IMG/VR virus record: IMGVR_UViG_3300045988_108820
Location: 1 to 64,000 of that record
Length of the DNA stretch: 64,000 nt
Source: a virus
Reading direction: 5' to 3' (one strand)
How positions within the stretch are numbered: position 1 is the stretch's first letter; every line of letters begins with the position of its first letter. Below are positions 6,403-39,515 of this stretch, in pieces. Under the pieces are notes generated by a model, which was given only the letters and a program-made list of their open reading frames with translations, did not search any database and had not been told where the DNA came from. Both the position numbers and the translations under genes were made by a program.

Positions 6403-6656
6403 GTTTCAACTTCTATTATGTAACTACCATCAGACATACTAATAGATTTAACTACTCCAACTGAGAGTTTATCCTTCAAAGAAATCATAGGACCTCCACT
6501 AATATCAATAAAATTATATTTATCTTTTACTTCATCAATAGTACCTAGTCTAGTGTAAGGAGACCTATGTATAAGCTTATACTTATTATCTTTTATCTTT
6601 TCGAGATATACTTCATCATTATATCTATTAGGTAATCTTATTTTATTTTCTTGCAT
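6399..6656 (-). CDS. hypothetical protein (85 aa)
   Basis: Intact ORF overlapping both neighbours by a few nt. Confidence 0.5.
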   Translation of the reverse strand: MQENKIRLPNRYNDEVYLEKIKDNKYKLIHRSPYTRLGTIDEVKDKYNFIDISGGPMISLKDKLSVGVVKSISMSDGSYIIEVET

Positions 6657-7143
6657 AAACTTCTAAACTTTTAAAATCAATTACATACTTATAATTTTGT
6701 AAAAAGTCAGTTCCAAGTAGTCCATGTACTTCTACTCCAGTATTTTTTTTAATGTATTTAGTGGTCTCTTCAAGTTCTGCTGATATTGACATTTGTATCT
6801 CATATTTATTACTTAATGCATCCTTAAACTCAGCAGTACAAATAGTAACTCCCTGATTTACTGCTCCGAGACCAGCTATTTTAGTAGTATTATTAGTTCC
6901 AAGATGCTCATGCTTTATAAGAGCAGCAGCAGATGGACATATATGAGAAATATTACTCCCAGTATCAATAAGGAAATTGAGAGCCACACCATTATTAGTT
7001 AGAGTAATGACAGGTAAATCTCCTGGCATATATTTTTTAATAGAGATGCTTTCTTGAGTAATTCTTCCATCTTTCATAAAAATATTAACTATACTACCCA
7101 AGGCAGCAACCCCAGTAAGTATTAAAGTTGCTTCTAATATCAT
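6643..7143 (-). CDS. membrane-anchored retropepsin-like aspartic protease
   Basis: N-terminal hydrophobic helix (ILEATLILTGVAALGSIVNIF), catalytic FLIDTGSN and a downstream LLGTDFL flap-like motif. Confidence 0.6.
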   Translation of the reverse strand: MILEATLILTGVAALGSIVNIFMKDGRITQESISIKKYMPGDLPVITLTNNGVALNFLIDTGSNISHICPSAAALIKHEHLGTNNTTKIAGLGAVNQGVTICTAEFKDALSNKYEIQMSISAELEETTKYIKKNTGVEVHGLLGTDFLQNYKYVIDFKSLEVYARK

Positions 7144-7691
7144 TATTTAACTCCTGTTTTTCCATGACCTCCTCTATCTGCATTACCAAGCTTATTAACC
7201 CATACAAACTCAATTTTACTAGAAAAGAGCCATTTAAGTTTTTGCCACATAGTTGCAAATTGATTAGGTACAATTTCAAATTGACAAATTCTTTCTCCCT
7301 TATGAATAGTAGTTTTATCTATTGAATAGCAATAAAATCCCCACTCATCATTATCACCACAATAAATTGTATCAATAAATCCTGATGAAGCCACTACAAG
7401 TCTAAGCTTCTTAGTTGTGGAACTTCTTTGTTTAATCTTAGCACTAAATCCTTTAGGTAGTTGCATTGCAATGCCTAGTTTAATGAGTTGTTCATCAAAC
7501 TTTACATCTCTTGTTTTTATACCATCTTTTTGATGGAGAGTTCCTGCTTGAGGAGCATTAAATTTATAATTTTCAGCAGCTCTAAGATCTATACAGTCAC
7601 CAATTGGGTTAATAAAAGGAACTAATTTACCCTTTTCATCAATAGCTTCTGTATAAAGACCTTTTACTAATTCTTTTACTTTAATTTTCAT
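7143..7691 (-). CDS. dut: dUTP diphosphatase
   Basis: Motifs RSST, GFIDTIYCGD (G.ID..Y.G) and C-terminal RGGHGKTG. Confidence 0.75.
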   Translation of the reverse strand: MKIKVKELVKGLYTEAIDEKGKLVPFINPIGDCIDLRAAENYKFNAPQAGTLHQKDGIKTRDVKFDEQLIKLGIAMQLPKGFSAKIKQRSSTTKKLRLVVASSGFIDTIYCGDNDEWGFYCYSIDKTTIHKGERICQFEIVPNQFATMWQKLKWLFSSKIEFVWVNKLGNADRGGHGKTGVK

Positions 7692-7725
7692 AGTTTTTAA
7701 TTTAATTATACAAAAAGAGGGAGTA

Positions 7726-8202
7726 TTAATTACTCCCCCAAAATTTACTAGTTATGTCTTTTTTAAATACTTTATTATCTATAACTTTTATTTCAAGCAT
7801 TACTTGATTAGTTGTTTTACTATTAAGTGGACCTTTATCTTTATCATAATGACCATACTTAATAAAGTTGAAATTCTCTAGATTAATATCTTTACTAATA
7901 TAATCTCTGCCACTATACCATCCTACTTTTAGCTCTGGATAATATTCTTTTATATCTTCTGCAATATAGTCTATTTCACTTGGATCACTATCACCTCCCA
8001 TAAGACAAACACAGGTTATTCCTAGATTAGCATCTATTAAATCTACTAGATGCTCTAAATCAAGAGGTTCTCCTATATTATCTGCAAGATAAGGAGAATG
8101 ACAACCAATACATCCTATTTTACATCCTGTAATATTTATACATAATGTAATTTCGTCAGGTATTTCTGCAAATGTTACTTGGGTATTTGAATATTTCAAC
8201 AT
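7726..8202 (-). CDS. nrdG: anaerobic ribonucleotide reductase activating protein (radical SAM)
   Basis: CKIGCIGCHSP cluster; about 158 aa; directly downstream of nrdD. Confidence 0.85.
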   Translation of the reverse strand: MLKYSNTQVTFAEIPDEITLCINITGCKIGCIGCHSPYLADNIGEPLDLEHLVDLIDANLGITCVCLMGGDSDPSEIDYIAEDIKEYYPELKVGWYSGRDYISKDINLENFNFIKYGHYDKDKGPLNSKTTNQVMLEIKVIDNKVFKKDITSKFWGSN

Positions 8203-8320
8203 ACTTTTTAACTATATTAAATTTATCTATAGGTAATGGGTGCTTTTCTGCTAAAATATTAAGATATTCCATGTCTTTACTCTTTTTATAGACAATAGCT
8301 TCACTAAATTATTTTAATGC

Positions 8321-10951: not shown

Positions 10952-12061
10952 CAGTTGTGTTATCTTATAGGCTCTTTATCCTATAATTCTACAGTTTCAT
11001 GTATATCTGTAGCTCGGACTATATCTTCATTTTTTCAAATGCTCGGCACTCTTGGGTATATTATATTCTATTTTATAGTTTCAATACCTAGTCTCTGAAC
11101 CTTCACTTTTTTAAAGGTGTGCTTGGCTGCTGATTGTCCCATCGGAGTTTCCAGCAATTCACCGAGTTTTAAGCGAACTCATACTTATTAATATTTGATA
11201 TTTATCATATTTTCTTTTTAAATAAAAATTAGAATCTAAGTATAGCCAATCTAAGATTTTCTTAACTTGATGCCCAGTATAATTAAGGTGATATACATCA
11301 TACTTTGTTTCCTTTCCTAGATAACCATTAGTAAGTGCTTGTTTTGTTATAATAGGTCTAACTTGTTCAAGGAAAACTTTTGATGCAGAAGTTAAATCAA
11401 ATCTACAATGATATATTTTATCTTGAAGTTGTAAACAACCGTCTCCATCAAAGAACCCTCTTATAAAGTGTCTATATAGAGATTTATCAATATTTGGAAA
11501 TTGGATTGTCCTAGTCTTATTAGGAGTACATCCCCAGCTTATTAAGTAATTACAGGATTTTTGAGAACTTACTTCTAAAACATAAGCATCATATCCTCTA
11601 TAAGTAACTTTTCTTATAGGATAATCACATTGTAGACAATCTCTAAATTTCATTATAATATCTTCATCTTTTAATTTTAGATAAAATTTATTTTTAGATA
11701 CACTGCCATCTGAATACATTAACCCTAGAAAATAAGCTTTTGCCTCTGTATCAATATATTCAAAGAAGTTTTCATCTATTAAGTGTCTTCCTACTCTATT
11801 TCTTCTATGCTTTGAATAATCTCTTTTATATATGATTCCTGCACTTCTAATATACTTTAATACTGTACTATTACTATATCCTAATTTTTCTCCTATTTCT
11901 ATAGGTTGCAATCCTTGATTATACAATTCAAGAATTGATTCTAAATTAATAACCTTTATATTCATACCTTTATTTTTAGATATATGTACAAAGGTAATGA
12001 TAATAAATCAAGTATACAAATCTGTAAGTAACTCTATAATGGAATTGTTATAAAGTTTTTA
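10952..12061 (-). mobile_element. group I intron 1 (about 1110 nt) in the nuclease gene
   Basis: Minus-strand core elements in order: P AATTGCTGGAAA (11148-11159), Q AATCAGCAGCC (11125-11135), R GGTTCAGAGACT (11090-11101), S AAGATATAGTCC (11016-11027). The 5' exon ends in U (GAT|taa) and the intron ends ...GATAACACAACTG|. Confidence 0.8.
11159..11965 (-). CDS. intron-encoded LAGLIDADG homing endonuclease with N-terminal HTH
   Basis: Two LAGLIDADG motifs (YFLGLMYSDGSV, FIRGFFDGDGCL); N-terminal HTH (GYSNSTVLKYIRSAG). Confidence 0.85.
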   Translation of the reverse strand: MNIKVINLESILELYNQGLQPIEIGEKLGYSNSTVLKYIRSAGIIYKRDYSKHRRNRVGRHLIDENFFEYIDTEAKAYFLGLMYSDGSVSKNKFYLKLKDEDIIMKFRDCLQCDYPIRKVTYRGYDAYVLEVSSQKSCNYLISWGCTPNKTRTIQFPNIDKSLYRHFIRGFFDGDGCLQLQDKIYHCRFDLTSASKVFLEQVRPIITKQALTNGYLGKETKYDVYHLNYTGHQVKKILDWLYLDSNFYLKRKYDKYQILISMSSLKTR

Positions 12062-26196: not shown

Positions 26197-27297
26197 CAAT
26201 TTTGTTATCATAAAGCTTTTTATCTTTATTTCTTATGCTTCATTTTACATAAGTTCGGCGTACATTTTCACCTTTAACTTAATAGTAAGGGTAGGACACT
26301 CTTGGGTCTATTATATTTATTCAAGACCTACGCTCTACACTACTAATTAACCTTTTGCAATTTAATTAGTTAGCACGGTATTGGCATCTCAGCTTTCACC
26401 GTTTTTGCCCTATAATCATATTAAGAATTTCTTCTTAACACGGCAAATCTATTGTATTTTCTATCTAAATATATAGTAGCATCTTCATATAGAATAGTAG
26501 CAAGCTTATCAGCTTTATCACAAGAGCAACTAATACTATAAGTGTTGCTAGTACTCCTTTTATTTCTAGCTACCTTTCCTGTAAAGAACTCAGGAAAATA
26601 ATTAATAATTCCATCTAGAAACTCTTTAGTTCCAATAATTTCAATTACTAATCTACCTGTTTTAGTATATGTTAAGCACCCATCCCCATCAATATACCCC
26701 CTTATAAAATCCTTGATTAATCCTGTATTTTTGAATATACTTTTATCAGGGAATTTTAGTATTAGAGATTTTCTAGGAATACACCCTAATTCAATTAGTC
26801 TATCATGGAAGTGCTTATCTGTAGCATTAAATCTACATCTTTGATAAGCCTTTCCATTACATCTAGAATTAGACAGCTTCACTTCATTCCTACTCTCTAA
26901 GAACTCTTTGAATTTTTGCAGATGCTCTTTATCTACACTAGCTAATGATAATTCTACTTGATTATCTCTTGCAGAGATACTTCCATCAGCATATAAGAAT
27001 CCTAGCCAATAAGCTTTCTCCTCAGTATCAATACTATCAAAAATTTTGTTGTTAAATTTTAGTTCATTATGATAGTTGTGAAGATTAATGCCTAGCTTTC
27101 TTAATTTCCTGTGTACTGTAGAATAATCTAAATTCAATATAGAACTTATCTCTTTTCCTGTCTTTCTTTTCTGAACTAGCTTTAATAATTCAGATGTTAC
27201 TTCTCTGTATTTGCCCATAATATTTGTAGTTTATTTGGCAAAGGCACAGATAATTATTTAGATATGCAATAGGTTAAGTAAATTACTTAACTATTTT
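26197..27297 (-). mobile_element. group I intron 4 (about 1101 nt) in the helicase gene
   Basis: The 3' end GATAACAAAATTG| matches introns 1-3. 5' exon ends GGT|. The core is diverged but shares the GGACACTCTTGGG block with intron 1. Confidence 0.6.
26421..27218 (-). CDS. intron-encoded LAGLIDADG homing endonuclease with HTH
   Basis: YWLGFLYADGSI and FIRGYIDGDGCL; N-terminal HTH LNLDYSTVHRKLRKLG. Confidence 0.85.
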   Translation of the reverse strand: MGKYREVTSELLKLVQKRKTGKEISSILNLDYSTVHRKLRKLGINLHNYHNELKFNNKIFDSIDTEEKAYWLGFLYADGSISARDNQVELSLASVDKEHLQKFKEFLESRNEVKLSNSRCNGKAYQRCRFNATDKHFHDRLIELGCIPRKSLILKFPDKSIFKNTGLIKDFIRGYIDGDGCLTYTKTGRLVIEIIGTKEFLDGIINYFPEFFTGKVARNKRSTSNTYSISCSCDKADKLATILYEDATIYLDRKYNRFAVLRRNS

Positions 27298-28421: not shown

Positions 28422-28766
28422 TTAATTAATAATGTCGTTGTTTATATTTTTCTTTATTTTCTCTTTAGAGTCTTTCTTCATAATAGATTCAAAGAACTTT
28501 ATCTTAGCTACTGACTTTACCATCTCCATGAGTACTATAAAGTTTCTTAGAGGCATAGTAAGCATTATAGAGGAGATAACAATCGTTACAAGATTAATAC
28601 TCTTTCCAGAGAAATTTTCAATGAGGCTTGTTACATCCTCAATCTTAATATTCTTCTCTTTGTATTCTTCTTCTTTCTCCTTGTAAGCTACCTTAATTGT
28701 TTCAAGTACTCTCTTAATGTCTTTCTCATTGATGATAGACATCTGATTTTCTTTGTCTGCTGCCAT
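28422..28766 (-). CDS. hypothetical protein (114 aa)
   Basis: Intact ORF; the antisense ORF 28432..28686 is judged a shadow. Confidence 0.5.
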   Translation of the reverse strand: MAADKENQMSIINEKDIKRVLETIKVAYKEKEEEYKEKNIKIEDVTSLIENFSGKSINLVTIVISSIMLTMPLRNFIVLMEMVKSVAKIKFFESIMKKDSKEKIKKNINNDIIN

Positions 28767-28815
28767 AATTTTGTTTATTAAAATTAATATAAAATAAATA
28801 GTGTTTTCTAAAAAT

Positions 28816-28929
28816 AGCTACTTAATTGATACATTATCAGTGTATTGCATTAACCACTATGCTAATCATCCATCTTTATGAGAATAATATAGGACTCGAA
28901 CCTATGAAATAATAGTATTGTAAGTAGCT
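28816..28929 (-). ncRNA. cassette f: circularly permuted tRNA-like RNA clamped by a 9-bp terminal stem
   Basis: Minus-strand order: AGCUACUUA-CAAUACUAUUAUUUC, then T arm ATAGG-TTCGAGT-CCTAT, 3' acceptor ATTATTC, T, a 9-nt linker, 5' acceptor GGATGAT, TA, D arm GCAT-AGTGGTTA-ATGC, anticodon arm ATACA-CTGATAA-TGTAT, CAAT, and UAAGUAGCU. Confidence 0.55.
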
Positions 28930-28979
28930 CAAATGCAGTAAAATATAAAATTTTACTATATGAAAGAAAGTAAGTTATT

Positions 28980-29040
28980 GGCACTGATATTATCCCTATA
29001 ATATAAATAAACATTGTAACCAATGTGTTTTGTAAGTGCC
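28980..29040 (-). repeat. cassette e: ACUUACAA-core hairpin unit (stem GGCACU/AGUGCC)
   Basis: Inverted repeat ggcact (28980-85) / agtgcc (29035-40), plus an inner hairpin ACATTG/CAATGT. Confidence 0.5.
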
Positions 29041-29045
29041 AAAAG

Positions 29046-29153
29046 CGGGGAAGGTAGGACTCGAACCTACATTTGATAGTTTATGAAATCTATTGCTTAT
29101 TATTAGTGTTGTAAGTATCCATGATACTATTAAACCATTTTAGCTACTTCCCC
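29046..29153 (-). ncRNA. cassette d: tRNA-like gene with an internal insertion of about 31 nt carrying the ACUUACAA core
   Basis: Perfect acceptor GGGGAAG/CTTCCCC, D arm GCTA-AAATGGTTTAA-TAGT and T arm GTAGG-TTCGAGT-CCTAC. There are 54 nt between the D and T arms, including hairpin AGTATC-ATG-GATACT and an ATAG-(A)TTTCATAA(A)-CTAT arm. Confidence 0.5.
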
Positions 29154-29164
29154 TTGTTGTTTAT

Positions 29165-29264
29165 AGTTACTTAATAATGTATGTTAGATTTGAACTAACT
29201 GTCTTTGAATTATAAATTCAACGCTTTACCAAATAAGCTAATACTATTAGTATTGTAAGTAACT
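29165..29264 (-). ncRNA. cassette c: tRNA-Ile(UAU)-like module inside a 9-bp leader/trailer clamp
   Basis: Clamp AGUUACUUA/UAAGUAACU. Inside (29175..29247): D arm GCTT-ATTTGGTA-AAGC, anticodon arm TTGAA-TTTATAA-TTCAA, T arm GTTAG-TTCAAAT-CTAAC. The acceptor pairs only 5 of 7. Confidence 0.5.
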
Positions 29265-29275
29265 TATATGTCTAT

Positions 29276-29339
29276 AGACACTAAAAAATCATAATACACA
29301 AATCCAAATTTAATTTTAGAGATTATATTGTAAGTGTCT
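29276..29339 (-). repeat. cassette b: ACUUACAA-core hairpin unit (stem AGACACU/AGUGUCU)
   Basis: Inverted repeat agacact (29276-82) / agtgtct (29333-39). Confidence 0.5.
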
Positions 29340-29347
29340 TTGAGTAA

Positions 29348-29381
29348 ATATAGGAGGTATTACTCCTCCTATATTTTTTTA
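29348..29381. terminator. strong hairpin, possibly a bidirectional terminator
   Basis: 10-bp stem ATATAGGAGG/CCTCCTATAT with a T7 run on the plus side and an A7 run on the other side; about 100 nt downstream of the vWA gene stop. Confidence 0.5.
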
Positions 29382-29401
29382 TTGATATTAAACTAATTAT
29401 T

Positions 29402-29456
29402 GATACTAAACTAAAATTAAATGCTTCAAGAAATTAATATATTAATTGTAAGTATC
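29402..29456 (-). repeat. cassette a: ACUUACAA-core hairpin unit (stem GAUACU/AGUAUC)
   Basis: Inverted repeat gatact (29402-07) / agtatc (29451-56). Confidence 0.45.
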
Positions 29457-29471
29457 AGTTATTATGCTTAG

Positions 29472-31298
29472 TTAAAGTACATTTTCCTTTACTATATCAT
29501 ATCTATTGCTCCTAAACAAAGATTGTAAAGGAGTATAAACATCCATAATATCCATATCTTTGAAGTTAGTTAAGAACTGCTCAATCTGTGCTACATTAGC
29601 AGGGATATAAATCATATTCTCAATACCTTCAAATCTATTGATAGAAGTACTTCTAAAACCCCAACCACCATCTACATCAATAGCTACAATGTAGGGTTTA
29701 AATCCAAAGTATCTTTGACATTTCATCATAAAACTATTCATTGAAGCTTCAGGAGATGGAAATGAGTTCCATTCACCATCACTAATAATAGTCCATACAG
29801 GATAATTCTTCAGAGCATCAAGTATTTGAGGATTACGCTGACATTCCAAATGTAAAGTATCTGGAATTTTATCAATATAAGTACAACCACCTTGGAATAC
29901 TGCATTACAGAAACTCTTAATAGATTGATAATTGTCATAGAAGCTCTTCTTAGGGTCAACAAATGGAGTTTGCTTAATCTTTACTGCGTTACTTCTAATG
30001 AGAGAGTTTGCAGAAGTAGCTTTTCTATCTATACAAGTATGCCAATGACTGTTACTATTGAAGAAACCAAGTAAGTTTCTACCATCATCATCTGGATTCT
30101 TACATAGACATACAGAAGCCAAGAATGAAGCAAAGTTAAAGGGTTTACCTCTCATAGAACCTGAATCATCTATAATTACAAGACTATTATAAGGAAGATT
30201 AACCTTAGTCATGAATGTTTCAAGCTTTAGTTTATCTACATTGCCATAGCAAATATCATTGTACAGCTCTTTGAAGTTAGTTGCACCTGTATTAACCTTA
30301 GCCTGCTTTGCAACTTTCCTTAACTTGATTTTATCTTCCTCTGTAGCTTGTCCCTGTCTAACTTTTTCCTCTAGAACTCTTTGTTCAGTTTGTTTAGATT
30401 CTTTATATCTCTCCCATTCAGTAAGCCAAGGTTGGAACTTAGAATATTTATCCTTCTCAGTATCTTTAATCTTACTATAAAGGATTCTGTTCTTAACTCT
30501 AAACCTTGCTTGTGAAGGAAGTTTGTCAAACCAATCAATAAATGACTGTTTATCAAACTCATTAATTTTACCTGTAGAAAATAGTACTGACTCAAGGTTA
30601 CCATTATAATCCTTTCTCCACTTTCTATAGCCTTTGAAGTTAGCATAGCCCTCATTTACTTCATACTCCCAACCCATAAGTTCTGAGAGCATTATAAGTA
30701 ACTTGATCTTATCTTCCATTACCTTTTTAGTTTCAGGAAGCATCTTGCTATGACCACTTCTCTTACCTACTCTAGGAAGTGTTAGAAATTTAGCAACAAG
30801 AGTTTTATTAAAAGGATTACTACCATTGATAACTTTATAGAGATAGTTTGCAATAACCTCTCTATATTTTGCTTCAGCAAAGAGATTATGTATTCTAATA
30901 ACTCTAGAACCTTTAGTTTGTACTCTATTTCTAAACAGCAAGTCAAAGCAAGTATATTCATTGAACAAACCTGCTTCAAGGAATTTTACAAATTGAGTTT
31001 GGTGTTTATTCCACATCCAATTAAGAACTACTTGAAAACCCTCTCTATTAGCATTACCACCACTGTCTTTTTTAACACCTTTAAAGATGTTATGTTGTCT
31101 AGCTGTAATATCTCCAATTGAAAAGAGTAAACTAAAGAACATTTTTCTTTTTTCTTTGTCATTCTTAACCTCTAACCAACAAGCATCTAGTAATGATGTA
31201 TCAATTGCATTACATACATTTTGGAAGAGTTTAAGACAATTTTTTAATCCATAAAAAGGATTATTGTTACTTTTGCTATTTAATTTAACTTGTACCAT
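29472..31298 (-). CDS. helical N-domain (DUF2828-like) plus vWA/MIDAS protein; Ro60-like architecture
   Basis: MIDAS motif D-x-S-x-S in SLVIIDDSGSMRG at about residue 375. The N-terminal FFSLLFSIGDITARQ...GGNANREGFQVVLNWMW resembles the remembered DUF2828 pattern (FylRdiR.GkGER..F...l.wL). Confidence 0.6.
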   Translation of the reverse strand: MVQVKLNSKSNNNPFYGLKNCLKLFQNVCNAIDTSLLDACWLEVKNDKEKRKMFFSLLFSIGDITARQHNIFKGVKKDSGGNANREGFQVVLNWMWNKHQTQFVKFLEAGLFNEYTCFDLLFRNRVQTKGSRVIRIHNLFAEAKYREVIANYLYKVINGSNPFNKTLVAKFLTLPRVGKRSGHSKMLPETKKVMEDKIKLLIMLSELMGWEYEVNEGYANFKGYRKWRKDYNGNLESVLFSTGKINEFDKQSFIDWFDKLPSQARFRVKNRILYSKIKDTEKDKYSKFQPWLTEWERYKESKQTEQRVLEEKVRQGQATEEDKIKLRKVAKQAKVNTGATNFKELYNDICYGNVDKLKLETFMTKVNLPYNSLVIIDDSGSMRGKPFNFASFLASVCLCKNPDDDGRNLLGFFNSNSHWHTCIDRKATSANSLIRSNAVKIKQTPFVDPKKSFYDNYQSIKSFCNAVFQGGCTYIDKIPDTLHLECQRNPQILDALKNYPVWTIISDGEWNSFPSPEASMNSFMMKCQRYFGFKPYIVAIDVDGGWGFRSTSINRFEGIENMIYIPANVAQIEQFLTNFKDMDIMDVYTPLQSLFRSNRYDIVKENVL

Positions 31299-31330
31299 CT
31301 TATTAATATTTATTATTATTTGTAAGTAAC
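31266..31330 (-). promoter_or_regulatory. cassette g: ACUUACAA core on the vWA gene leader, with a 6-bp stem enclosing the start codon
   Basis: Minus strand GUUACUUACAAAUAAUAAUAAAUAUUAAUAAG-AUG-...AGCAAAAGUAAC; arms gttact (31266-71) / agtaac (31325-30); ATG at 31298. Confidence 0.4.
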
Positions 31331-31382
31331 ATAGTTAGGATATTCTTTTTATCTTTGAATTATATATGTCTTCCTTATACTA

Positions 31383-31826
31383 TTAGAAAGTTTCAGCTTC
31401 ATCTATAGCTGAAAGCTCTGCTTCAAGTTCCTTAATTTTATCCTCAGGTGATTTCTGAGAATCTTTAAGTTCTTTAAGTTTAGCTGTAAGTTCAGCTTTT
31501 TTCTTGATATTTTCTTCAACCTCCATTTTATATCTCTTGTAACCTATTACAAGGTTTACAAGTTCTTTTTGTCTTTTTGCAATGTCTAGTTGTTGGGCAT
31601 TAATTTCACTTGCTATCCACTCATCTTGACTTTCAAGTTGCTTAATTTTATTAGATAAAGTAAGTCTAATATTATTAAGAGAGTTGATTGTAGTAGTGTG
31701 AAGCAACTCAACTACATTGATAGGTGTTCCTAGTTTAGAGCTTATTATTTCATTTCTAAGTAACATACCCATCAACAAAGTACACATTTTATTAAAGTGC
31801 TCTTTTGTAAAGTTAATCTTTGCCAT
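31383..31826 (-). CDS. hypothetical coiled-coil protein (147 aa)
   Basis: Heptad-rich C-terminal half (KKKAELTAKLKELKDSQKSPEDKIKELEAELSAIDE). Confidence 0.5.
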   Translation of the reverse strand: MAKINFTKEHFNKMCTLLMGMLLRNEIISSKLGTPINVVELLHTTTINSLNNIRLTLSNKIKQLESQDEWIASEINAQQLDIAKRQKELVNLVIGYKRYKMEVEENIKKKAELTAKLKELKDSQKSPEDKIKELEAELSAIDEAETF

Positions 31827-33164: not shown

Positions 33165-33179
33165 TGTTAATTTAATTAG

Positions 33180-33263
33180 TACAGGAAGTGGGACTTGAAC
33201 CCACACGTTCTAATGAACATCAGAGCTTAAATCTGAGGTGTCTACCAATTCCACCATTCCTGC
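33180..33263 (-). tRNA. tRNA-Leu(UAA), type II
   Basis: Acceptor GCAGGAA/TTCCTGT, anticodon arm TCAGA-TTTAAGC-TCTGA, long variable arm, T arm GTGGG-TTCAAGT-CCCAC. Confidence 0.8.
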
Positions 33264-33289
33264 AATACATAAAAATAAATAATAATTTG

Positions 33290-33360
33290 AGTCATGTGTG
33301 GGAATTGAACCCACGAATCAACATTGGAAGTGTTGCATTTTACCACTAAACTAACATGAC
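33290..33360 (-). tRNA. tRNA-Gly(UCC)
   Basis: Acceptor GTCATGT/ACATGAC, anticodon arm CAACA-CTTCCAA-TGTTG, T arm GTGGG-TTCAATT-CCCAC. Confidence 0.85.
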
Positions 33361-33562
33361 ATATAGTTAATAATGCAAAGTTAATAATAATTTTATATGT
33401 AACAAAGTTTTAATTGAAAAGCTTAAGTAAATAAAGTAGAAAACCACTCTATCTTCACAGACCGAGTAGTACACATCATTGAAATATTTAAAAAACAAAT
33501 GTATTAGATTTCTTTTATAACTAACATTTACACATAACTAAACTATAAATAACTTTTATTAG

Positions 33563-33633
33563 CTGATCTTATTGGAGTTGAACCAATATCTATAGTTTTG
33601 GAGACTATTGTTTTACCGTTAAACTAAAGACCA
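33563..33633 (-). tRNA. tRNA-Trp(CCA)
   Basis: Acceptor TGGTCTT/AAGATCA, D arm GTTT/AAAC, anticodon arm ATAGT-CTCCAAA-ACTAT, T arm ATTGG-TTCAACT-CCAAT. Confidence 0.8.
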
Positions 33634-33897
33634 GTTAAATAGGACAACCACTTAACCTATTATGGTACGATAAGTTTTTTTAATTACTCGCAGGGACGTA
33701 CTTTCAACTTAAACCCCGAAGTGGAAATTTTTATTTAGTTTTTATAATAATTAGTAATAATTTCAAAATCCTTTAAATTACTATACCTGGCTTCTATAAT
33801 AGTCATGCCAAAATACTTACTGAAATGTTTAGCGATTTTAATTGTTTCATAATAATTTAATTGATTTAGTTATTAATAAATGGTTAATTGTTTTGAG

Positions 33898-33971
33898 TAC
33901 TCCTTGTAGGACTTGAACCTACGACTCCCAAGGTATAAGCTTGGTGCTCTAACCGACTGAACTAAAGGAGT
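33898..33971 (-). tRNA. tRNA-Ile(UAU)
   Basis: Acceptor ACTCCTT/AAGGAGT, anticodon arm CCAAG-CTTATAC-CTTGG, T arm GTAGG-TTCAAGT-CCTAC. Confidence 0.8.
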
Positions 33972-34223
33972 AATTATAAACCTCTCAAGAGTACTATTTT
34001 TAATAATTAATTTAACTATTAAAACTTGAGAGGTTTAAGTCAAACAGAGATACAATTAATAAAAGAATTTAATAAGAATAAATTACAGCTCATCTACATC
34101 TATCTGTTGATTTTGATATTTTAAAGTAATAAAATATCTCAGGGTTACTGACTTTTATTCACTACTATTAACCCTTTTTCGCTTAAATTCTTTTATCTTT
34201 AAAACTTTAGACTATTATTTCTA

Positions 34224-34418
34224 CTAAAGGTTGTCCCAGTAATGTTCATAATTACTATTTAATTCTTTCTCAATAAGTATAGCATCTTGAAGATAAGCTT
34301 TTAAAAATTGCGAACAATCATCAAATGAATTAATATTTCCTTCAAATTCAATATTTAACCATTGTTCACAATATTTTATATCTTCTCTTTGCTTTTCTGT
34401 TGATTTAAGAAGTCTCAT
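34224..34418 (-). CDS. hypothetical protein (64 aa)
   Basis: Intact ORF between tRNA blocks. Confidence 0.45.
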   Translation of the reverse strand: MRLLKSTEKQREDIKYCEQWLNIEFEGNINSFDDCSQFLKAYLQDAILIEKELNSNYEHYWDNL

Positions 34419-34423
34419 CGTAA

Positions 34424-34732
34424 TTATAATTTTAATAACCTTTTAATTTTAGTCCATAATGAGCACTTTATAGATTTACTTTGTATGCCTTTGCCTGACT
34501 TTCTATTATTATAGATAGCATTTGGACTAACTACCATAAATGAAACTTTTAATTTTGAGGGATCTTTAGAAGGAGCTAGTACTTGATACCAATGTATTCT
34601 ACAAGCAGCTTCTGTCCTATTTAGATCTTTACTTACTTCCCTAAAAGCTTTATTAATGTTTTGAGGATAGGCTTCTATAGCCTGGACTAAAACTTTGTTT
34701 TCCTCATCAGTCCAATACTTTCTTTTTGTCAT
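34424..34732 (-). CDS. Myb/SANT-like DNA-binding domain protein
   Basis: YWTDEENKVLVQAIEAY...RTEAACRIHWYQVL fits the W..eE...L....G..W......RT...C..RW repeat pattern. Confidence 0.55.
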   Translation of the reverse strand: MTKRKYWTDEENKVLVQAIEAYPQNINKAFREVSKDLNRTEAACRIHWYQVLAPSKDPSKLKVSFMVVSPNAIYNNRKSGKGIQSKSIKCSLWTKIKRLLKL

Positions 34733-34768
34733 ACTTTATTACTTTGTTTCTTGTTTTTATTTATTTTG

Positions 34769-34840
34769 TACCCCTAGTAAGACTCGAACTTACATTTCAA
34801 GTTTAGGAAACTTGAGTTCTATCCTTTGAACTATAGGAGT
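34769..34840 (-). tRNA. tRNA-Arg(CCU)
   Basis: Acceptor ACTCCTA/TAGGGGT, anticodon arm CAAGT-TTCCTAA-ACTTG, T arm GTAAG-TTCGAGT-CTTAC. Confidence 0.8.
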
Positions 34841-34846
34841 TAATAG

Positions 34847-34920
34847 TCTTCCCAGTGAGACTCGAACTCACAACTTATGCTTTAGAAGAGCATTACTCTA
34901 ATCCATTGAGTTATGGGAAG
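34847..34920 (-). tRNA. tRNA-Arg(UCU)
   Basis: Acceptor CTTCCCA/TGGGAAG, anticodon arm ATGCT-CTTCTAA-AGCAT, T arm GTGAG-TTCGAGT-CTCAC. Confidence 0.85.
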
Positions 34921-34923
34921 ATA

Positions 34924-35038
34924 GTGCAGAGATTAGACTAAAAAATACTTAGTGCATTCTACTATGCTATCCATTCTATTGGCACAGGAGTTTGTCACCT
35001 GTTCTCTAAGTATTAGTTTTAGAAAAGAATCTCTGCAC
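34924..35038. ncRNA. 115-nt rod-like structured element (nested inverted repeats) within the tRNA block
   Basis: Outer 11-bp arms GTGCAGAGATT/AATCTCTGCAC, then CTAAAA/TTTTAG, TACTTAG/CTAAGTA, and an inner hairpin ACAGG-AGTTTGTCA-CCTGT. No ORF. Confidence 0.45.
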
Positions 35039-35170
35039 ATGGCACGTGAATTTGTAATTTATAGGCAATACTAGACCTATAAATTTTGGTTCTACCTTTT
35101 ATTGTACAATTATTTTGATAGCCTGGAATTATTTGGATTTGGTAATTATAGTATTCTATTCCACCCATGT

Positions 35171-35242
35171 GGGCTAGTAGAGGATTGAACTCTAAACCTT
35201 CACAGTATCAGTGTGATGCTCTAACCAATTGAGCTACTAGCC
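35171..35242 (-). tRNA. tRNA-Ile(GAU)
   Basis: Acceptor GGCTAGT/ACTAGCC, anticodon arm TCACA-CTGATAC-TGTGA, T arm AGAG(T)-TTCAATC-CTCT. Confidence 0.85.
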
Positions 35243-35343
35243 TATAATGCTATTGTTTCACAACAACAGCATTAATAAAACAGTATTAACAACCAAAACA
35301 GTATTAATAAGACAAATTAACTTTAATGAAACCTACATAGATT

Positions 35344-37949: not shown

Positions 37950-38021
37950 GGAGCCATCATCTAATGGTTAGGATACAAGATTTTCAACCTTGAAATAGGG
38001 GTTCAATTCCCCTTGGCTCTT
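37950..38021 (+). tRNA. tRNA-Glu(UUC)
   Basis: Acceptor GGAGCCA/TGGCTCT, anticodon loop TTTTCAA (31-39 A.C mismatch), T arm AGGGG-TTCAATT-CCCCT. Confidence 0.75.
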
Positions 38022-38026
38022 CAATA

Positions 38027-38098
38027 GACTATGAAGTGTAATGGTTTTGCATACCACACTGTCAATGTGGTGGATGGGGTTCAATTCCCCCATAGTCT
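38027..38098 (+). tRNA. tRNA-Asp(GUC)
   Basis: Acceptor GACTATG/CATAGTC, anticodon arm CCACA-CTGTCAA-TGTGG, T loop TTCAATT. Confidence 0.75.
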
Positions 38099-38101
38099 GC
38101 T

Positions 38102-38296
38102 ATGATAAAAATATTAAGAAAGGAGGGTTGGATATTAAACCCTAATGATAAAATAGTAAATGCTATTTTAAAAAGAGTAGAATTAAATAATGGAGAGTGT
38201 CCTTGTCAAAATGATAGTAGTGATAAGCATTGTCCATGTACAGATTATAGAGATAAAAACTTATGTCATTGTAATCTCTATATCAAGTCAGAGTAA
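38102..38296 (+). CDS. ferredoxin-thioredoxin reductase catalytic-subunit-like small Cys protein
   Basis: CPCQ...CPC...CHCNLY spacing matches the FTR beta-chain CPC/CPC/CHC signature. Confidence 0.55.
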   Translation: MIKILRKEGWILNPNDKIVNAILKRVELNNGECPCQNDSSDKHCPCTDYRDKNLCHCNLYIKSE

Positions 38297-38319
38297 TATC
38301 TACTCTAGAACTAACTAAG

Positions 38320-38391
38320 GGGTGAGTGATGTAATTGGTAACATACTTCCTTTGCAAGGAAGAATTAAGGGTTCAAATCCCTCTTGCTCCA
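38320..38391 (+). tRNA. tRNA-Ala(UGC)
   Basis: D arm ATGT-AATTGGTA-ACAT, anticodon arm CTTCC-TTTGCAA-GGAAG, T loop TTCAAAT. The acceptor register is ambiguous (one register gives G3.U70). Confidence 0.7.
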
Positions 38392-38553
38392 CAATATTAA
38401 CTATAATTTATTAATATGAAAAAGATTTTATCTTTATTTAAAAGGGGACTTAATGCCTATTTAAATGCATTAGCTAAATGTCCTTATGTACCGTCAGGAA
38501 CTATCCCAATGGGAGTTTAGTTCCTTTAATTTAGAATTAATACTATAATATAT

Positions 38554-38626
38554 TGGCATATAGTATAAAGGTTTATTACGATTGACTGTTAATCAATGAA
38601 TCAAGGTTCGAGTCCTTGTATGCCAG
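38554..38626 (+). tRNA. tRNA-Asn(GUU)
   Basis: Acceptor TGGCATA/TATGCCA, anticodon arm ATTGA-CTGTTAA-TCAAT, T arm CAAGG-TTCGAGT-CCTTG. Confidence 0.85.
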
Positions 38627-38647
38627 CATAGAAAAATAATATATAAT

Positions 38648-38878
38648 ATGTGGTTATTGGAAAGTAATAGATCTAAACACCTACTTTATGCAATACCTTC
38701 AGCCTATATAGGTACTATATTATTTAGTACTGGTTTAGCTTTTGGTATGGAGTTTAAAGATAAACAATATGGTGGTAAATTTGATTGGCTTGATATAGCT
38801 GCTACTATGATAGGTGGTATAGTTGGTCAATTATTGCAGGTTAGTATGATAAGTTTAATCTATTTAACATTTAATTAA
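38648..38878 (+). CDS. small membrane protein (76 aa)
   Basis: Two hydrophobic helices (IGTILFSTGLAFG, IAATMIGGIVGQLLQV). Confidence 0.45.
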   Translation: MWLLESNRSKHLLYAIPSAYIGTILFSTGLAFGMEFKDKQYGGKFDWLDIAATMIGGIVGQLLQVSMISLIYLTFN

Positions 38879-38979
38879 TATGGAAGCACTTAATGTTATA
38901 ATTGGTATTGTAGGTAATGCAATAGTACTAGGTCTTATGTATTATTTTCTGGTAAAAAAGAAAGAATAATACTTAGGAT

Positions 38980-39065
38980 GCCTCCATGTTGGAATTAGTA
39001 GACAAGTTAGACTTAAAATCTAATAATCAGTAATGATTATGTGGGTGCAAGTCCCACTGGAGGTA
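38980..39065 (+). tRNA. tRNA-Leu(UAA), type II (second copy, opposite strand to 33180..33263)
   Basis: Acceptor GCCTCCA/TGGAGGT, anticodon arm TTAGA-CTTAAAA-TCTAA, long variable arm, T arm GTGGG-TGCAAGT-CCCAC. Confidence 0.8.
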
Positions 39066-39132
39066 CTATAGCAGCTCTTGAAGGGTGTAGAAAAGCATAG
39101 ACTTACTAGACTATTTAGACAATCTGCTATAA

Positions 39133-39215
39133 ACCCACTTGCTGGAATTGGTAGACAGGCTAGACTTAGGATCTAGTATCTAAATGATGTAAGAGTTCAA
39201 GTCTCTTAGTGGGTA
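39133..39215 (+). tRNA. tRNA-Leu(UAG), type II
   Basis: Acceptor ACCCACT/AGTGGGT, anticodon arm CTAGA-CTTAGGA-TCTAG, T arm AGAG(T)-TTCAAGT-CTCT. Confidence 0.8.
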
Positions 39216-39247
39216 CTAAAAATAATTATAAAAAACTTATAAAAAAG

Positions 39248-39278
39248 TTTGTAATTTCAAATAAATTACTTATCTTTG
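39248..39278 (+). promoter_or_regulatory. canonical Bacteroidota-type promoter in front of tRNA-Thr/Met
   Basis: TTTG (39248-51), a 19-nt spacer, then TATCTTTG (39271-78); the tRNA starts 15 nt downstream. Confidence 0.6.
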
Positions 39279-39292
39279 TAATTGTTGAAGAT

Positions 39293-39364
39293 GGTCTCTT
39301 AGTATAAAGGTTAATATCCTTGCTTTGTAACCAAGGGATGTAAGTTCGATTCTTACAGGGACCT
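39293..39364 (+). tRNA. tRNA-Thr(UGU)
   Basis: Acceptor GGTCTCT/AGGGACC, anticodon loop TTTGTAA with a 31-39 C.C mismatch, T arm GTAAG-TTCGATT-CTTAC. Confidence 0.7.
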
Positions 39365-39370
39365 CAATAT

Positions 39371-39443
39371 ACAGGGATGTTAGCAGTGGTAGCTAGTTAG
39401 CCTCATAAGCTAAAGGTCGTGGGTTCGACTCCCACTCCCTGAA
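39371..39443 (+). tRNA. tRNA-Met(CAU) (or Ile2/initiator type; acceptor register irregular)
   Basis: D arm TAGC-AGTGGTA-GCTA, anticodon arm TTAGC-CTCATAA-GCTAA, T arm GTGGG-TTCGACT-CCCAC. The top of the acceptor stem is mismatched. Confidence 0.7.
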
Positions 39444-39515
39444 CAAATTAAAATTAATAAATATATCTTCTTTGAAGAATACTTTATCTAGTGTATCATA
39501 TATAAAAATAACACT

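Follow-up and report, generated by a model that had tools for sequence, protein, structure and literature searches.

What is a protein with a von Willebrand factor A (vWA) domain doing beside a series of tRNA-like RNAs in a phage genome? The question is raised by a stretch of 64,000 nucleotides (positions 1 to 64,000 of the IMG/VR virus record IMGVR_UViG_3300045988_108820; hereafter the window), the AT-rich (30% GC) DNA of a crAss-like phage, in which the gene for a 608-aa vWA protein is followed on the minus strand by an array of small cassettes sharing a short sequence motif. A preliminary description of this locus had likened it to the ribonucleoprotein (RNP) of Ro60 and Y RNAs, particles conserved from bacteria to humans. 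We compared 50 related crAss-like loci (631 kb, with protein identities from 96% down to 29%), retrieved by a search with a 10-sequence alignment of the protein, and 66 diverse homologues of the protein itself; loci and other retrieved stretches are referred to by L numbers. The comparison supports the conclusion that the vWA gene and its RNA array form one conserved module and are inherited together.

The motif, ACUUACAA, has seven minus-strand copies in the interval 28918-31327: six are found in the 640-nt spacer that follows the gene, and the remaining one lies 22 nt ahead of its ATG. Over the whole window ACTTACAA is found 11 times against 4.9 ± 2.3 expected, a count reached in none of 100 shuffles, and its one-mismatch variants are at chance level; the motif is therefore a local signal, not a genome-wide one. 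Aligned over 290 distinct sites, it proved to belong to a base-paired element, which we call the clamp: a 7-bp helix (5′ strand N-G-N-Y-A-C-U, 3′ strand A-G-U-R-N-C-N) followed on the 5′ strand by single-stranded UACAA. The sequence logos of these sites read (A/U)-G(94%)-N-Y-A-C-U, then UACAA-W-A-Y-Y-A, for the 5′ strand and A-G-U-R-N-C(85%)-(U/A) for the 3′ strand. The helix was tested in a non-circular manner, partners being picked from the invariant core only and the untouched positions then scored. Pair -2:+4 is paired at 85% of the sites versus 44% in shuffled data (about 12 standard deviations) and pair -4:+6 at 82% versus 49%; pairs -5:+7 and -6:+8, further out, are at chance or lower, so that the helix measures exactly 7 bp. 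Helices with a single non-Watson-Crick pair among the four variable pairs comprise 23 of the G-U type versus four of the A-C type, an excess which indicates an RNA helix on the gene strand.

Most clamps (240 distinct sites) are open, their arms lying 26-296 nt apart, and 50 are closed hairpins with a median loop of about 3 nt. A second helix beside the clamp, with UACAA as an internal loop, is present in some D-loop inserts and was rejected as a general feature. L001, which has a richer array, contains a closed clamp with the variant motif ACAUACAA (6585-6710) and a clamped tRNA with an 8-nt anticodon loop, labelled 'cggg' by ARAGORN (6853-6965); exact-octamer counts therefore underestimate the number of cassettes.

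How strictly is this element tied to the gene? Counted over the 50 loci, the exact ACTTACAA has 337 copies on the strand of the gene versus 27 on the other, with only two copies within bodies of open reading frames (ORFs), and the gene-motif linkage extends down to 29% protein identity (L050). The array mostly lies downstream of the gene, and between the gene and the upstream ORF in L036, L037, L039, L045 and L050; being found on either side, it moves together with the gene. When IMG/VR was searched with the motif alone, as three octamers at set spacings, 49 stretches were returned, in which genuine clamps were restricted to those encoding the protein or lying on contigs already known to encode it, and no genuine array was found away from the gene in this search. 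In cr116_1 (Steigviridae, Pamirivirus), the sole GenBank phage with DNA similarity to the window, the flanking synteny is kept without the gene and without the array. The co-occurrence in relatives put forward as a check in the preliminary description thus holds in 44 of the 50 loci, which have at least three motif copies within 2.5 kb of the gene, and no array without the gene was found here, but it ends at 26% protein identity, with L104 and L105.

L105 is a 443-kb contig of jumbo-phage size in which the 26%-identity member P0254 is found beside a TerD gene (7630-8300); the surroundings hold ordinary tRNAs and a tRNA 5′-half-like sequence, without ACUUACAA, and this family member may have a different RNA partner. 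Most of the stretches with motif triples are unrelated coding tandem repeats without clamps, with periods of 15, 45, 69 and 75 nt; ACTTACAA is found in coding repeats of L058, L073, L084, L088, L099 and others, several of them on contigs of giant-virus metagenome-assembled genomes.

The features of the window are collected in Table 1. Five of the six cassettes have the terminal stem attributed to all of them in the preliminary description; in C4 the clamp is instead an internal closed hairpin, AGUAUC-AUG-GAUACU (29128-29114) followed by UACAA (to 29109), in the D-loop region, and the ends of the unit are its own acceptor stem. The spacer, thought to be free of ORFs, is overlapped at C5 and C6 by a mechanical 53-aa ORF starting with TTG (28862..29023). 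Minimum free energy structures contain the predicted clamp in every unit of the window. Judged by the canonical tRNA threshold (RF00005, 29 bits), C3 passes with 58.9 bits despite two mismatches in the acceptor stem of its tRNA-Ile(UAU), the 5′ half of C6 is borderline and partial with 29.1 bits, and C4, with its 28-nt insert, stays below with 18.6 bits. One tRNA-like unit had been described as having its acceptor closed by a loop and its ends elsewhere, and C6 is indeed of this kind: the clamp 5′ arm, UACAA and a linker are followed by a T arm, the acceptor 3′ strand, a 10-nt loop, the acceptor 5′ strand, a D arm, an anticodon arm (GAU) and the clamp 3′ arm. The cassettes without a tRNA body look like decayed versions; the C5 orthologues of L009 and L010, for example, contain a full tRNA. 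The stem of the hairpin between C1 and C2 is altered in sequence yet paired in L001 and L003 (compensatory changes). This hairpin reads as an intrinsic terminator with a T-run on the plus strand and as a weaker one on the minus strand; its possible roles include partial termination and RNA processing.

Table 1. Features of the vWA-array locus and other annotated features of the window (window positions).
Feature	Position	Strand	Description
C1	29401..29457	-	Clamp UGAUACU/AGUAUCA, short non-tRNA body; begins 14 nt past the stop codon
Hairpin between C1 and C2	29348..29374	-	10 bp; -15.4 kcal/mol, z -4.9
C2	29276..29339	-	Clamp AGACACU/AGUGUCU, non-tRNA body
C3	29165..29264	-	Clamp AGUUACU/AGUAACU around a complete tRNA-Ile(UAU), 29247-29175
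C4	29046..29153	-	tRNA-like RNA: acceptor GGGGAAG/CUUCCCC, T arm, 9-nt non-canonical anticodon loop
C5	28979..29041	-	Clamp UGGCACU/AGUGCCA, two small hairpins
C6	28816..28929	-	Circularly permuted tRNA-like RNA
Leader clamp	31265..31331	-	Putative translational operator; encloses the initiation region and the ATG (31298-31296)
608-aa protein	29472..31298	-	Helical N-domain (aa 1-365) and C-terminal vWA domain with intact metal ion-dependent adhesion site (MIDAS)
147-aa ORF	31383..31826	-	Coiled coil with acidic C-terminus (…DEAETF); directly upstream of the vWA gene
Canonical tRNA clusters	33179-35243; 37950-39444	-; +	Two divergent clusters, 15 genes
265-aa ORF	26421-27218	-	LAGLIDADG_3 homing-endonuclease domain; between a glucosaminidase-domain ORF and a helicase/HKD-like gene
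Group I catalytic intron	10995-11233	-	Rfam RF00028, 67.2 bits (gathering score 50)

Which RNAs does the clamp hold across the related loci? The 232 distinct open cassettes comprise 105 without a T arm (median body 52 nt), 67 tRNAs in normal order, 56 in which the T arm comes first and four with the T arm in the middle of the body. The clamp is kept in the 105 cassettes whose cargo has decayed; it is what selection keeps while the cargo decays. Clamped whole tRNAs score 54-65 bits, like real tRNAs. The closed clamps are found at three sites: in the D-loop (GGGGAxG class), in the anticodon loop directly past position 36 (Ser(UGA)-like class II scaffolds), or substituting for the anticodon loop. 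The possibility that these closed inserts are introns whose removal restores a 7-nt anticodon loop was rejected, as no consistent excision rule was found, and the intron calls of ARAGORN for the D-loop inserts are artefacts. In L033 (4560-5201) a clamped normal tRNA (AGUCACU…AGUGACU) is directly followed by a one-piece phage transfer-messenger RNA (tmRNA; Rfam 51.5 bits, gathering score 47), both being located upstream of the vWA gene.

In the class in which the T arm comes first, 41 distinct units could be parsed completely and share one circularly permuted order. The clamp 5′ arm is followed by UACAA and 12-31 nt, the T arm, the acceptor 3′ strand and a loop of 2-12 nt; then come the acceptor 5′ strand, U8-N9, a D arm with GG, an anticodon arm (28 of the 41 units) or none (13 of the 41), a linker and the clamp 3′ arm. 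The linkers flanking the clamp helix measure 17-36 nt and 6-17 nt. From a plain MAFFT alignment of 22 permuted units RNAalifold independently derived five helices, namely the clamp and those of the T arm, D arm, anticodon arm and closed acceptor, with compensatory changes in 21 of the 27 pairs; in the pair counts the covariation score is 0.729 versus 0.18 after shuffling and at most 0.14 when the partners were slid. In the anticodon loops U33 is present in all 28 units and a purine at position 37 in 27 of the 28, with 16 different anticodons, and 13 of the 41 closing loops begin with N-CCA, i.e., a discriminator base and CCA. Orthologous permuted units are present at 28816-28929 in the window and in L007, L008, L009, L010, L003 and L006, whose proteins are about 90% identical. 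Their stems are near-identical and carry the anticodons GAU, UUU, GUU, GUC and UCA, the anticodon arm being lost in L003 and L006; they vary mainly in the anticodon and in the loop that closes the acceptor.

The motif copy reported on the leader of the gene is confirmed (31320-31327), and it does more than lie there. UGUUACU (31331-31325), followed by UACAA, pairs with AGUAACA (31271-31265) in codons 10-12, so that the clamp encloses the ATG. Its outermost base pair, T-A in the window, is replaced by C-G in L003, a compensatory change. The ATG is enclosed in this way in 33 of the 48 loci with a complete upstream region, and in most of the others the clamp abuts it. In L030, L031, L033, L034 and L040 the AGUAAC 3′ arm is placed 0 to about 17 nt ahead of the start codon; in two of these loci, L033 and L040, the octamer is located about 95 nt upstream. 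This anatomy suggests a translational operator that would mimic the RNA ligand of the protein.

The protein itself was the starting point of the comparison with Ro60. The 608-aa ORF exists as described, and IIDDSGSMRG is a true MIDAS motif: D377, S379, S381, T473 and D507 are invariant in the 66 homologues. In the AlphaFold2 model (predicted local distance difference test, pLDDT, 90.4; predicted template modelling score, pTM, 0.86) residues 1-365 form a mostly helical domain with two small hairpins, followed by a vWA fold, in agreement with the two-domain layout, as in Ro60, that had been proposed. The family comprises 162 clusters at 50% identity; close homologues are encoded by Crassvirales contigs of about 100 kb, and none was found by tblastn among 50,697 GenBank phage records. 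PADLOC and NCBIfam found nothing in the protein. A close homologue is named 'cobalamin biosynthesis protein' in nr; this label, the only functional annotation of the family, is misleading.

Similarity to Ro60 is limited to the vWA domain. In hhalign comparisons with Ro60 only the vWA domains align (probability 85.6% and 91.1%, E 1e-6 to 6e-6), and the N-domain reaches a probability of 0.3-0.6% against TROVE, similar to a reversed control. Pfam did not detect TROVE (PF05731) in the window protein or the 66 homologues, even at E<=10, whereas the positive control, the bona fide phage Ro protein Bxz1 gp220, gave 9e-50 for TROVE and 4e-54 for vWA_Ro60. All sequence routes to TROVE beyond the vWA domain failed (Pfam at E<=10, PDB profiles with two alignments, hhalign with the full protein and with the N-domain only). 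Foldseek searches of the PDB with the full model returned only vWA domains, the best being the Mdn1 MIDAS domain (E 1.5e-4); the N-domain alone had no significant match, with weak HEAT/ARM-like similarities (TOG, CAND1; probability <=0.63, template modelling (TM) score about 0.2). Ro60 was not found among the best 50 PDB matches listed for either query. The phage Ro family phrog_850, which may be heterogeneous, is matched by the window protein at E 0.0059 and by Bxz1 Ro at 2.8e-140; more distant members match this possibly heterogeneous family partly across the N-domain (P0254 1e-19, P0233 6e-18, P0263 1e-14). The likeness to Ro60 claimed earlier therefore stands for the vWA domain and fails for TROVE by Pfam, hhalign and Foldseek: as far as the sequence comparisons go, the architecture is Ro60-like and the vWA domain Ro60-compatible, and membership in the TROVE family is not demonstrated.

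The N-region had also been described as DUF2828-like. Pfam detected neither DUF2828 nor any vWA family in the window protein, and DUF2828 (PF11443) in none of the 66 members, among which it reported VWA_2 in 23, a weak vWA_Ro60 (PF25045) in two and DUF7788 (PF25043) in one at E 0.015. The suggestion holds at the level of the fold only (TM 0.5-0.67 to viral DUF7788/VWFA proteins): a Foldseek search of viral models (BFVD) gave full-length matches to DUF7788/VWFA proteins at E 5e-11 to 2e-9, including those of Pithovirus LCPAC304, CroV and Acinetobacter phage ME3 (TMq 0.50-0.54, TMt 0.45-0.67).

The 147-aa ORF directly precedes the vWA gene in at least 43 of the 50 loci, and in L049 the two are fused; searches with the ORF gave weak matches of the coiled-coil type only. 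Its product could be a third component of the module, either a ligand of the MIDAS or an RNA binder. No AAA+ ATPase of the MoxR class was found among the window neighbours or the conserved neighbour families, an AAA gene being present only in L001, downstream of the array. ARAGORN counts 16 tRNAs in the window. None of the 15 canonical tRNAs in the two clusters has a ACUUACAA clamp; the cluster tRNAs Ile(UAU) and Ile(GAU) repeat the anticodons of the clamped C3 and C6, and their sequences are not recent copies.

Taken together, these observations are accounted for most economically by a Ro60/Y-RNA-like RNP with translational autoregulation, analogous to the known particles without being a demonstrated member of their class; we find this plausible, with the balance about even. 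The vWA gene would be co-transcribed with the array of tRNA-derived small RNAs, given the short distance between its stop codon and C1. Each RNA displays one putative recognition element, the 7-bp helix with UACAA(W-A-Y-Y-A): in whole tRNAs it lies beyond the acceptor stem, in tRNA-likes it forms a hairpin within the D-loop or the anticodon loop, in the permuted tRNA-likes it takes the position of the variable arm, and elsewhere it surrounds short remnants. The helical N-domain of the 608-aa protein would bind this element and the MIDAS/vWA domain would attract a partner protein, which is what has been proposed for Ro60; the protein would then correspond in function to Ro60 with its YrlA-type Y RNAs. 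Protein in excess of its RNA ligands would bind the leader element and repress its own translation. The role of such a module may be tRNA surveillance or protection against host tRNA-directed nucleases, an idea that the fast change of the anticodon on otherwise identical scaffolds would fit.

Several points weigh against this interpretation. RNA binding by the 608-aa protein is something we infer, and the N-domain that would do it has no detectable relation to TROVE, with weak HEAT/ARM-like matches in the PDB only; in its place, the conserved coiled-coil neighbour upstream or a factor of the host might bind the element. Family members at 26% identity lack the array, L104 having none and L105 being set among ordinary tRNAs, so that the link between gene and array is clade-specific. 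The 3′ arm of the leader clamp shows little covariation of its own because it lies within conserved Ser-Asn codons. Finally, the permuted units were pre-selected by a parser that required the stems, and the figure of 99% paired is therefore partly a product of construction; the 155 double-change cells are not.

Could the clamp serve RNA maturation rather than binding by the vWA protein? It would then be a processing signal, read by an endonuclease, a ligase or an enzyme of the RNase P/Z type, for the maturation of permuted, two-piece and insert-bearing tRNAs; the permuted units would become working tRNAs, their loop-closed acceptors being opened at N-CCA to yield two-piece tRNAs held together by the clamp at the position of the variable arm, and the vWA protein would be a chaperone at most. 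Two-piece tmRNAs and the permuted tRNAs of Cyanidioschyzon merolae are precedents for such a pathway. The closing loops that begin with a discriminator base and CCA, the canonical anticodon loops with their 16 anticodons and the scores of the clamped whole tRNAs all argue in its favour. A further precedent is the YrlA of M. smegmatis, which is cleaved by RNase P and receives CCA (PMC4201824). We nevertheless consider this explanation, the main rival of the RNP, possible but unlikely, since a bulge-helix-bulge motif is missing and the neighbourhood showed neither a splicing endonuclease nor a ligase; with linkers of the lengths given above, neither joining the halves nor keeping the helix yields a normal variable region. 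The permuted units without an anticodon arm and the many cassettes without a tRNA body do not fit it either, the inserts in anticodon loops cannot be removed to leave a 7-nt loop, and the clamp over the gene's own start codon is left unexplained. Processing and a Ro60-like RNP are not mutually exclusive. The permuted units could even be private two-piece tRNAs, opened at CCA, held by the clamp, switching anticodons and escorted by the Ro-like protein, which replace host tRNAs attacked by nucleases or act as bait for the attackers; this we judge decidedly unlikely.

Three further alternatives were considered. The array could be a decoy or sponge for a host tRNA or anticodon-loop nuclease, or for an RNA-binding regulator, with a separate role for the vWA protein; the host factor would read a CUUACAA-like anticodon loop, and the leader copy would protect or regulate the vWA mRNA. 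ACUUACAA does resemble the last part of an anticodon stem together with a CU-UAC-AA loop, an L027 permuted unit has a CUUACAA anticodon loop, the element is carried in many copies on stable tRNA scaffolds, and hypervariable anticodons on near-identical scaffolds suggest an arms race. We find this improbable, however, as the motif's CU takes part in the helix and no 7-nt loop is presented, strict co-inheritance with the vWA gene is not accounted for, and no candidate host factor is known. That gene and array are neighbours by coincidence, a tRNA island having been invaded by a small selfish repeat beside an unrelated vWA gene (e.g., one for virion assembly with a MoxR-type ATPase, or one with a CobT-like role), seems very improbable: the plasticity of phage tRNA regions, the 'cobalamin biosynthesis protein' label and the AAA gene of L001 would suit it, but the arms differ between copies and covary, which also led to the rejection of inverted repeats of the transposon or miniature inverted-repeat transposable element type; moreover, the motif is on the leader of the gene in nearly all loci, the array occurs up- or downstream of the gene and is lost together with it (cr116_1), and no AAA partner is conserved. 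A signal at the DNA level, be it a phage RNA polymerase promoter, a site of recombination or an element for replication, is scarcely credible. The octamer is invariant, strand-specific and placed before a gene, and C5 is overlapped by a sigma-70-like match, although matches of this type are less frequent than in shuffled sequence. Against such a signal, the rest of the window makes no use of the motif, which is embedded in tRNA-like folds, and long-range compensatory pairing that tolerates G-U but not A-C points to RNA of the gene strand. A genome-wide promoter was rejected, the motif being confined to the locus and its upstream arm covarying with a distant partner.

The natural RNA variants (whole tRNAs, permuted forms, forms lacking the anticodon arm and bare clamps) share one short and well-defined putative recognition element, of which the presumed operator is a further copy, and this makes both binding rules and function directly testable. 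With the module, dozens of circularly permuted tRNA-like genes come to light in the abundant crAss-like phages of the human gut, some of them encoding CCA, and the different anticodons on orthologous scaffolds point to a possible arms race around tRNA. If the permuted units prove to be working split tRNAs, the module could be more than an RNP of the Ro60/Y-RNA type; as far as found, no tRNAs of permuted or split type would have been known before from outside eukaryotes and archaea, and these would come with a new protein-RNA recognition code.

How does the module compare with known systems? No description of the motif, of such arrays or of permuted tRNA-like genes in phages was found in the searchable literature, in line with the view of the preliminary description that a multi-copy Y-like array beside this protein family was undescribed. 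The closest counterpart is Ro60 (Rsr) with YrlA (PMC4201824; RF02553; PF05731 and PF25045). In both systems the protein has a helical domain and, C-terminal to it, a vWA domain with MIDAS, and the noncoding RNAs (ncRNAs) are encoded on the same strand within about 1 kb, inside the limit of about 4 kb from the protein gene used for YrlA; as in YrlA, the RNA ends are paired in a stem with the conserved motif mainly on the 5′ strand, and the T arm, loop-closed acceptor and D arm follow in the same order, the 13 permuted units without an anticodon arm resembling YrlA in this as well. Phage-encoded examples of Ro60/YrlA exist too, in mycobacteriophages, and proteins of the ROT/TROVE type with a tRNA-like partner have been noted in jumbo phages (PMC7824862). 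In contrast, TROVE is undetectable here, and the Ro-binding motif of bacterial YrlA is GNCGAAN0-1G (PMC4201824), whereas the element described above is GNYACU-UACAA on an exact 7-bp helix. There are from six to more than ten cassettes per genome, versus one or two; the element also marks whole tRNAs, tRNA loops, remnants and a gene leader, and in many permuted units the anticodon arm is complete and hypervariable, unlike in YrlA. The Rfam model of YrlA had no match at E<=10 in 28700-29520 and a sole match in L045 and L033 of 25 bits (E 0.45), which coincides with no parsed permuted unit; the Bxz1 control scored 32.5 bits, itself under the gathering score of 69. What remains of the proposed likeness to YrlA is thus the permuted topology, with strong covariation, but neither the Rfam model nor the Ro-binding motif. 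The DUF2828/DUF7788 (VWFA) proteins of phages and giant viruses are similar in full-length fold and not connected by sequence models; no description of an RNA partner of these proteins was found in the literature searched.

Permuted tRNA genes are known from C. merolae, and a two-piece tmRNA arises from permuted ssrA. As in these precedents, the 3′ half precedes the 5′ half, the acceptor strands are joined by a short spacer that can contain the CCA end, and the break lies away from the acceptor. The phage units differ in having a continuous 7-bp helix, with flanks unpaired at chance level, instead of a bulge-helix-bulge, in belonging to a bacterial phage, in a break flanked by this helix and UACAA, and in the lack of an anticodon arm in some of them.

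For the leader, the comparison is with autoregulation by target mimicry, as in the operators of ribosomal proteins and in CsrA with its multi-site sponge RNAs of the CsrB type. The proteins and the RNA element are unrelated to those systems, and here we infer regulation from anatomy only. The arrangement is nonetheless the same, with an element repeated in many copies on ncRNAs and present once over the initiation region of its presumed binder.

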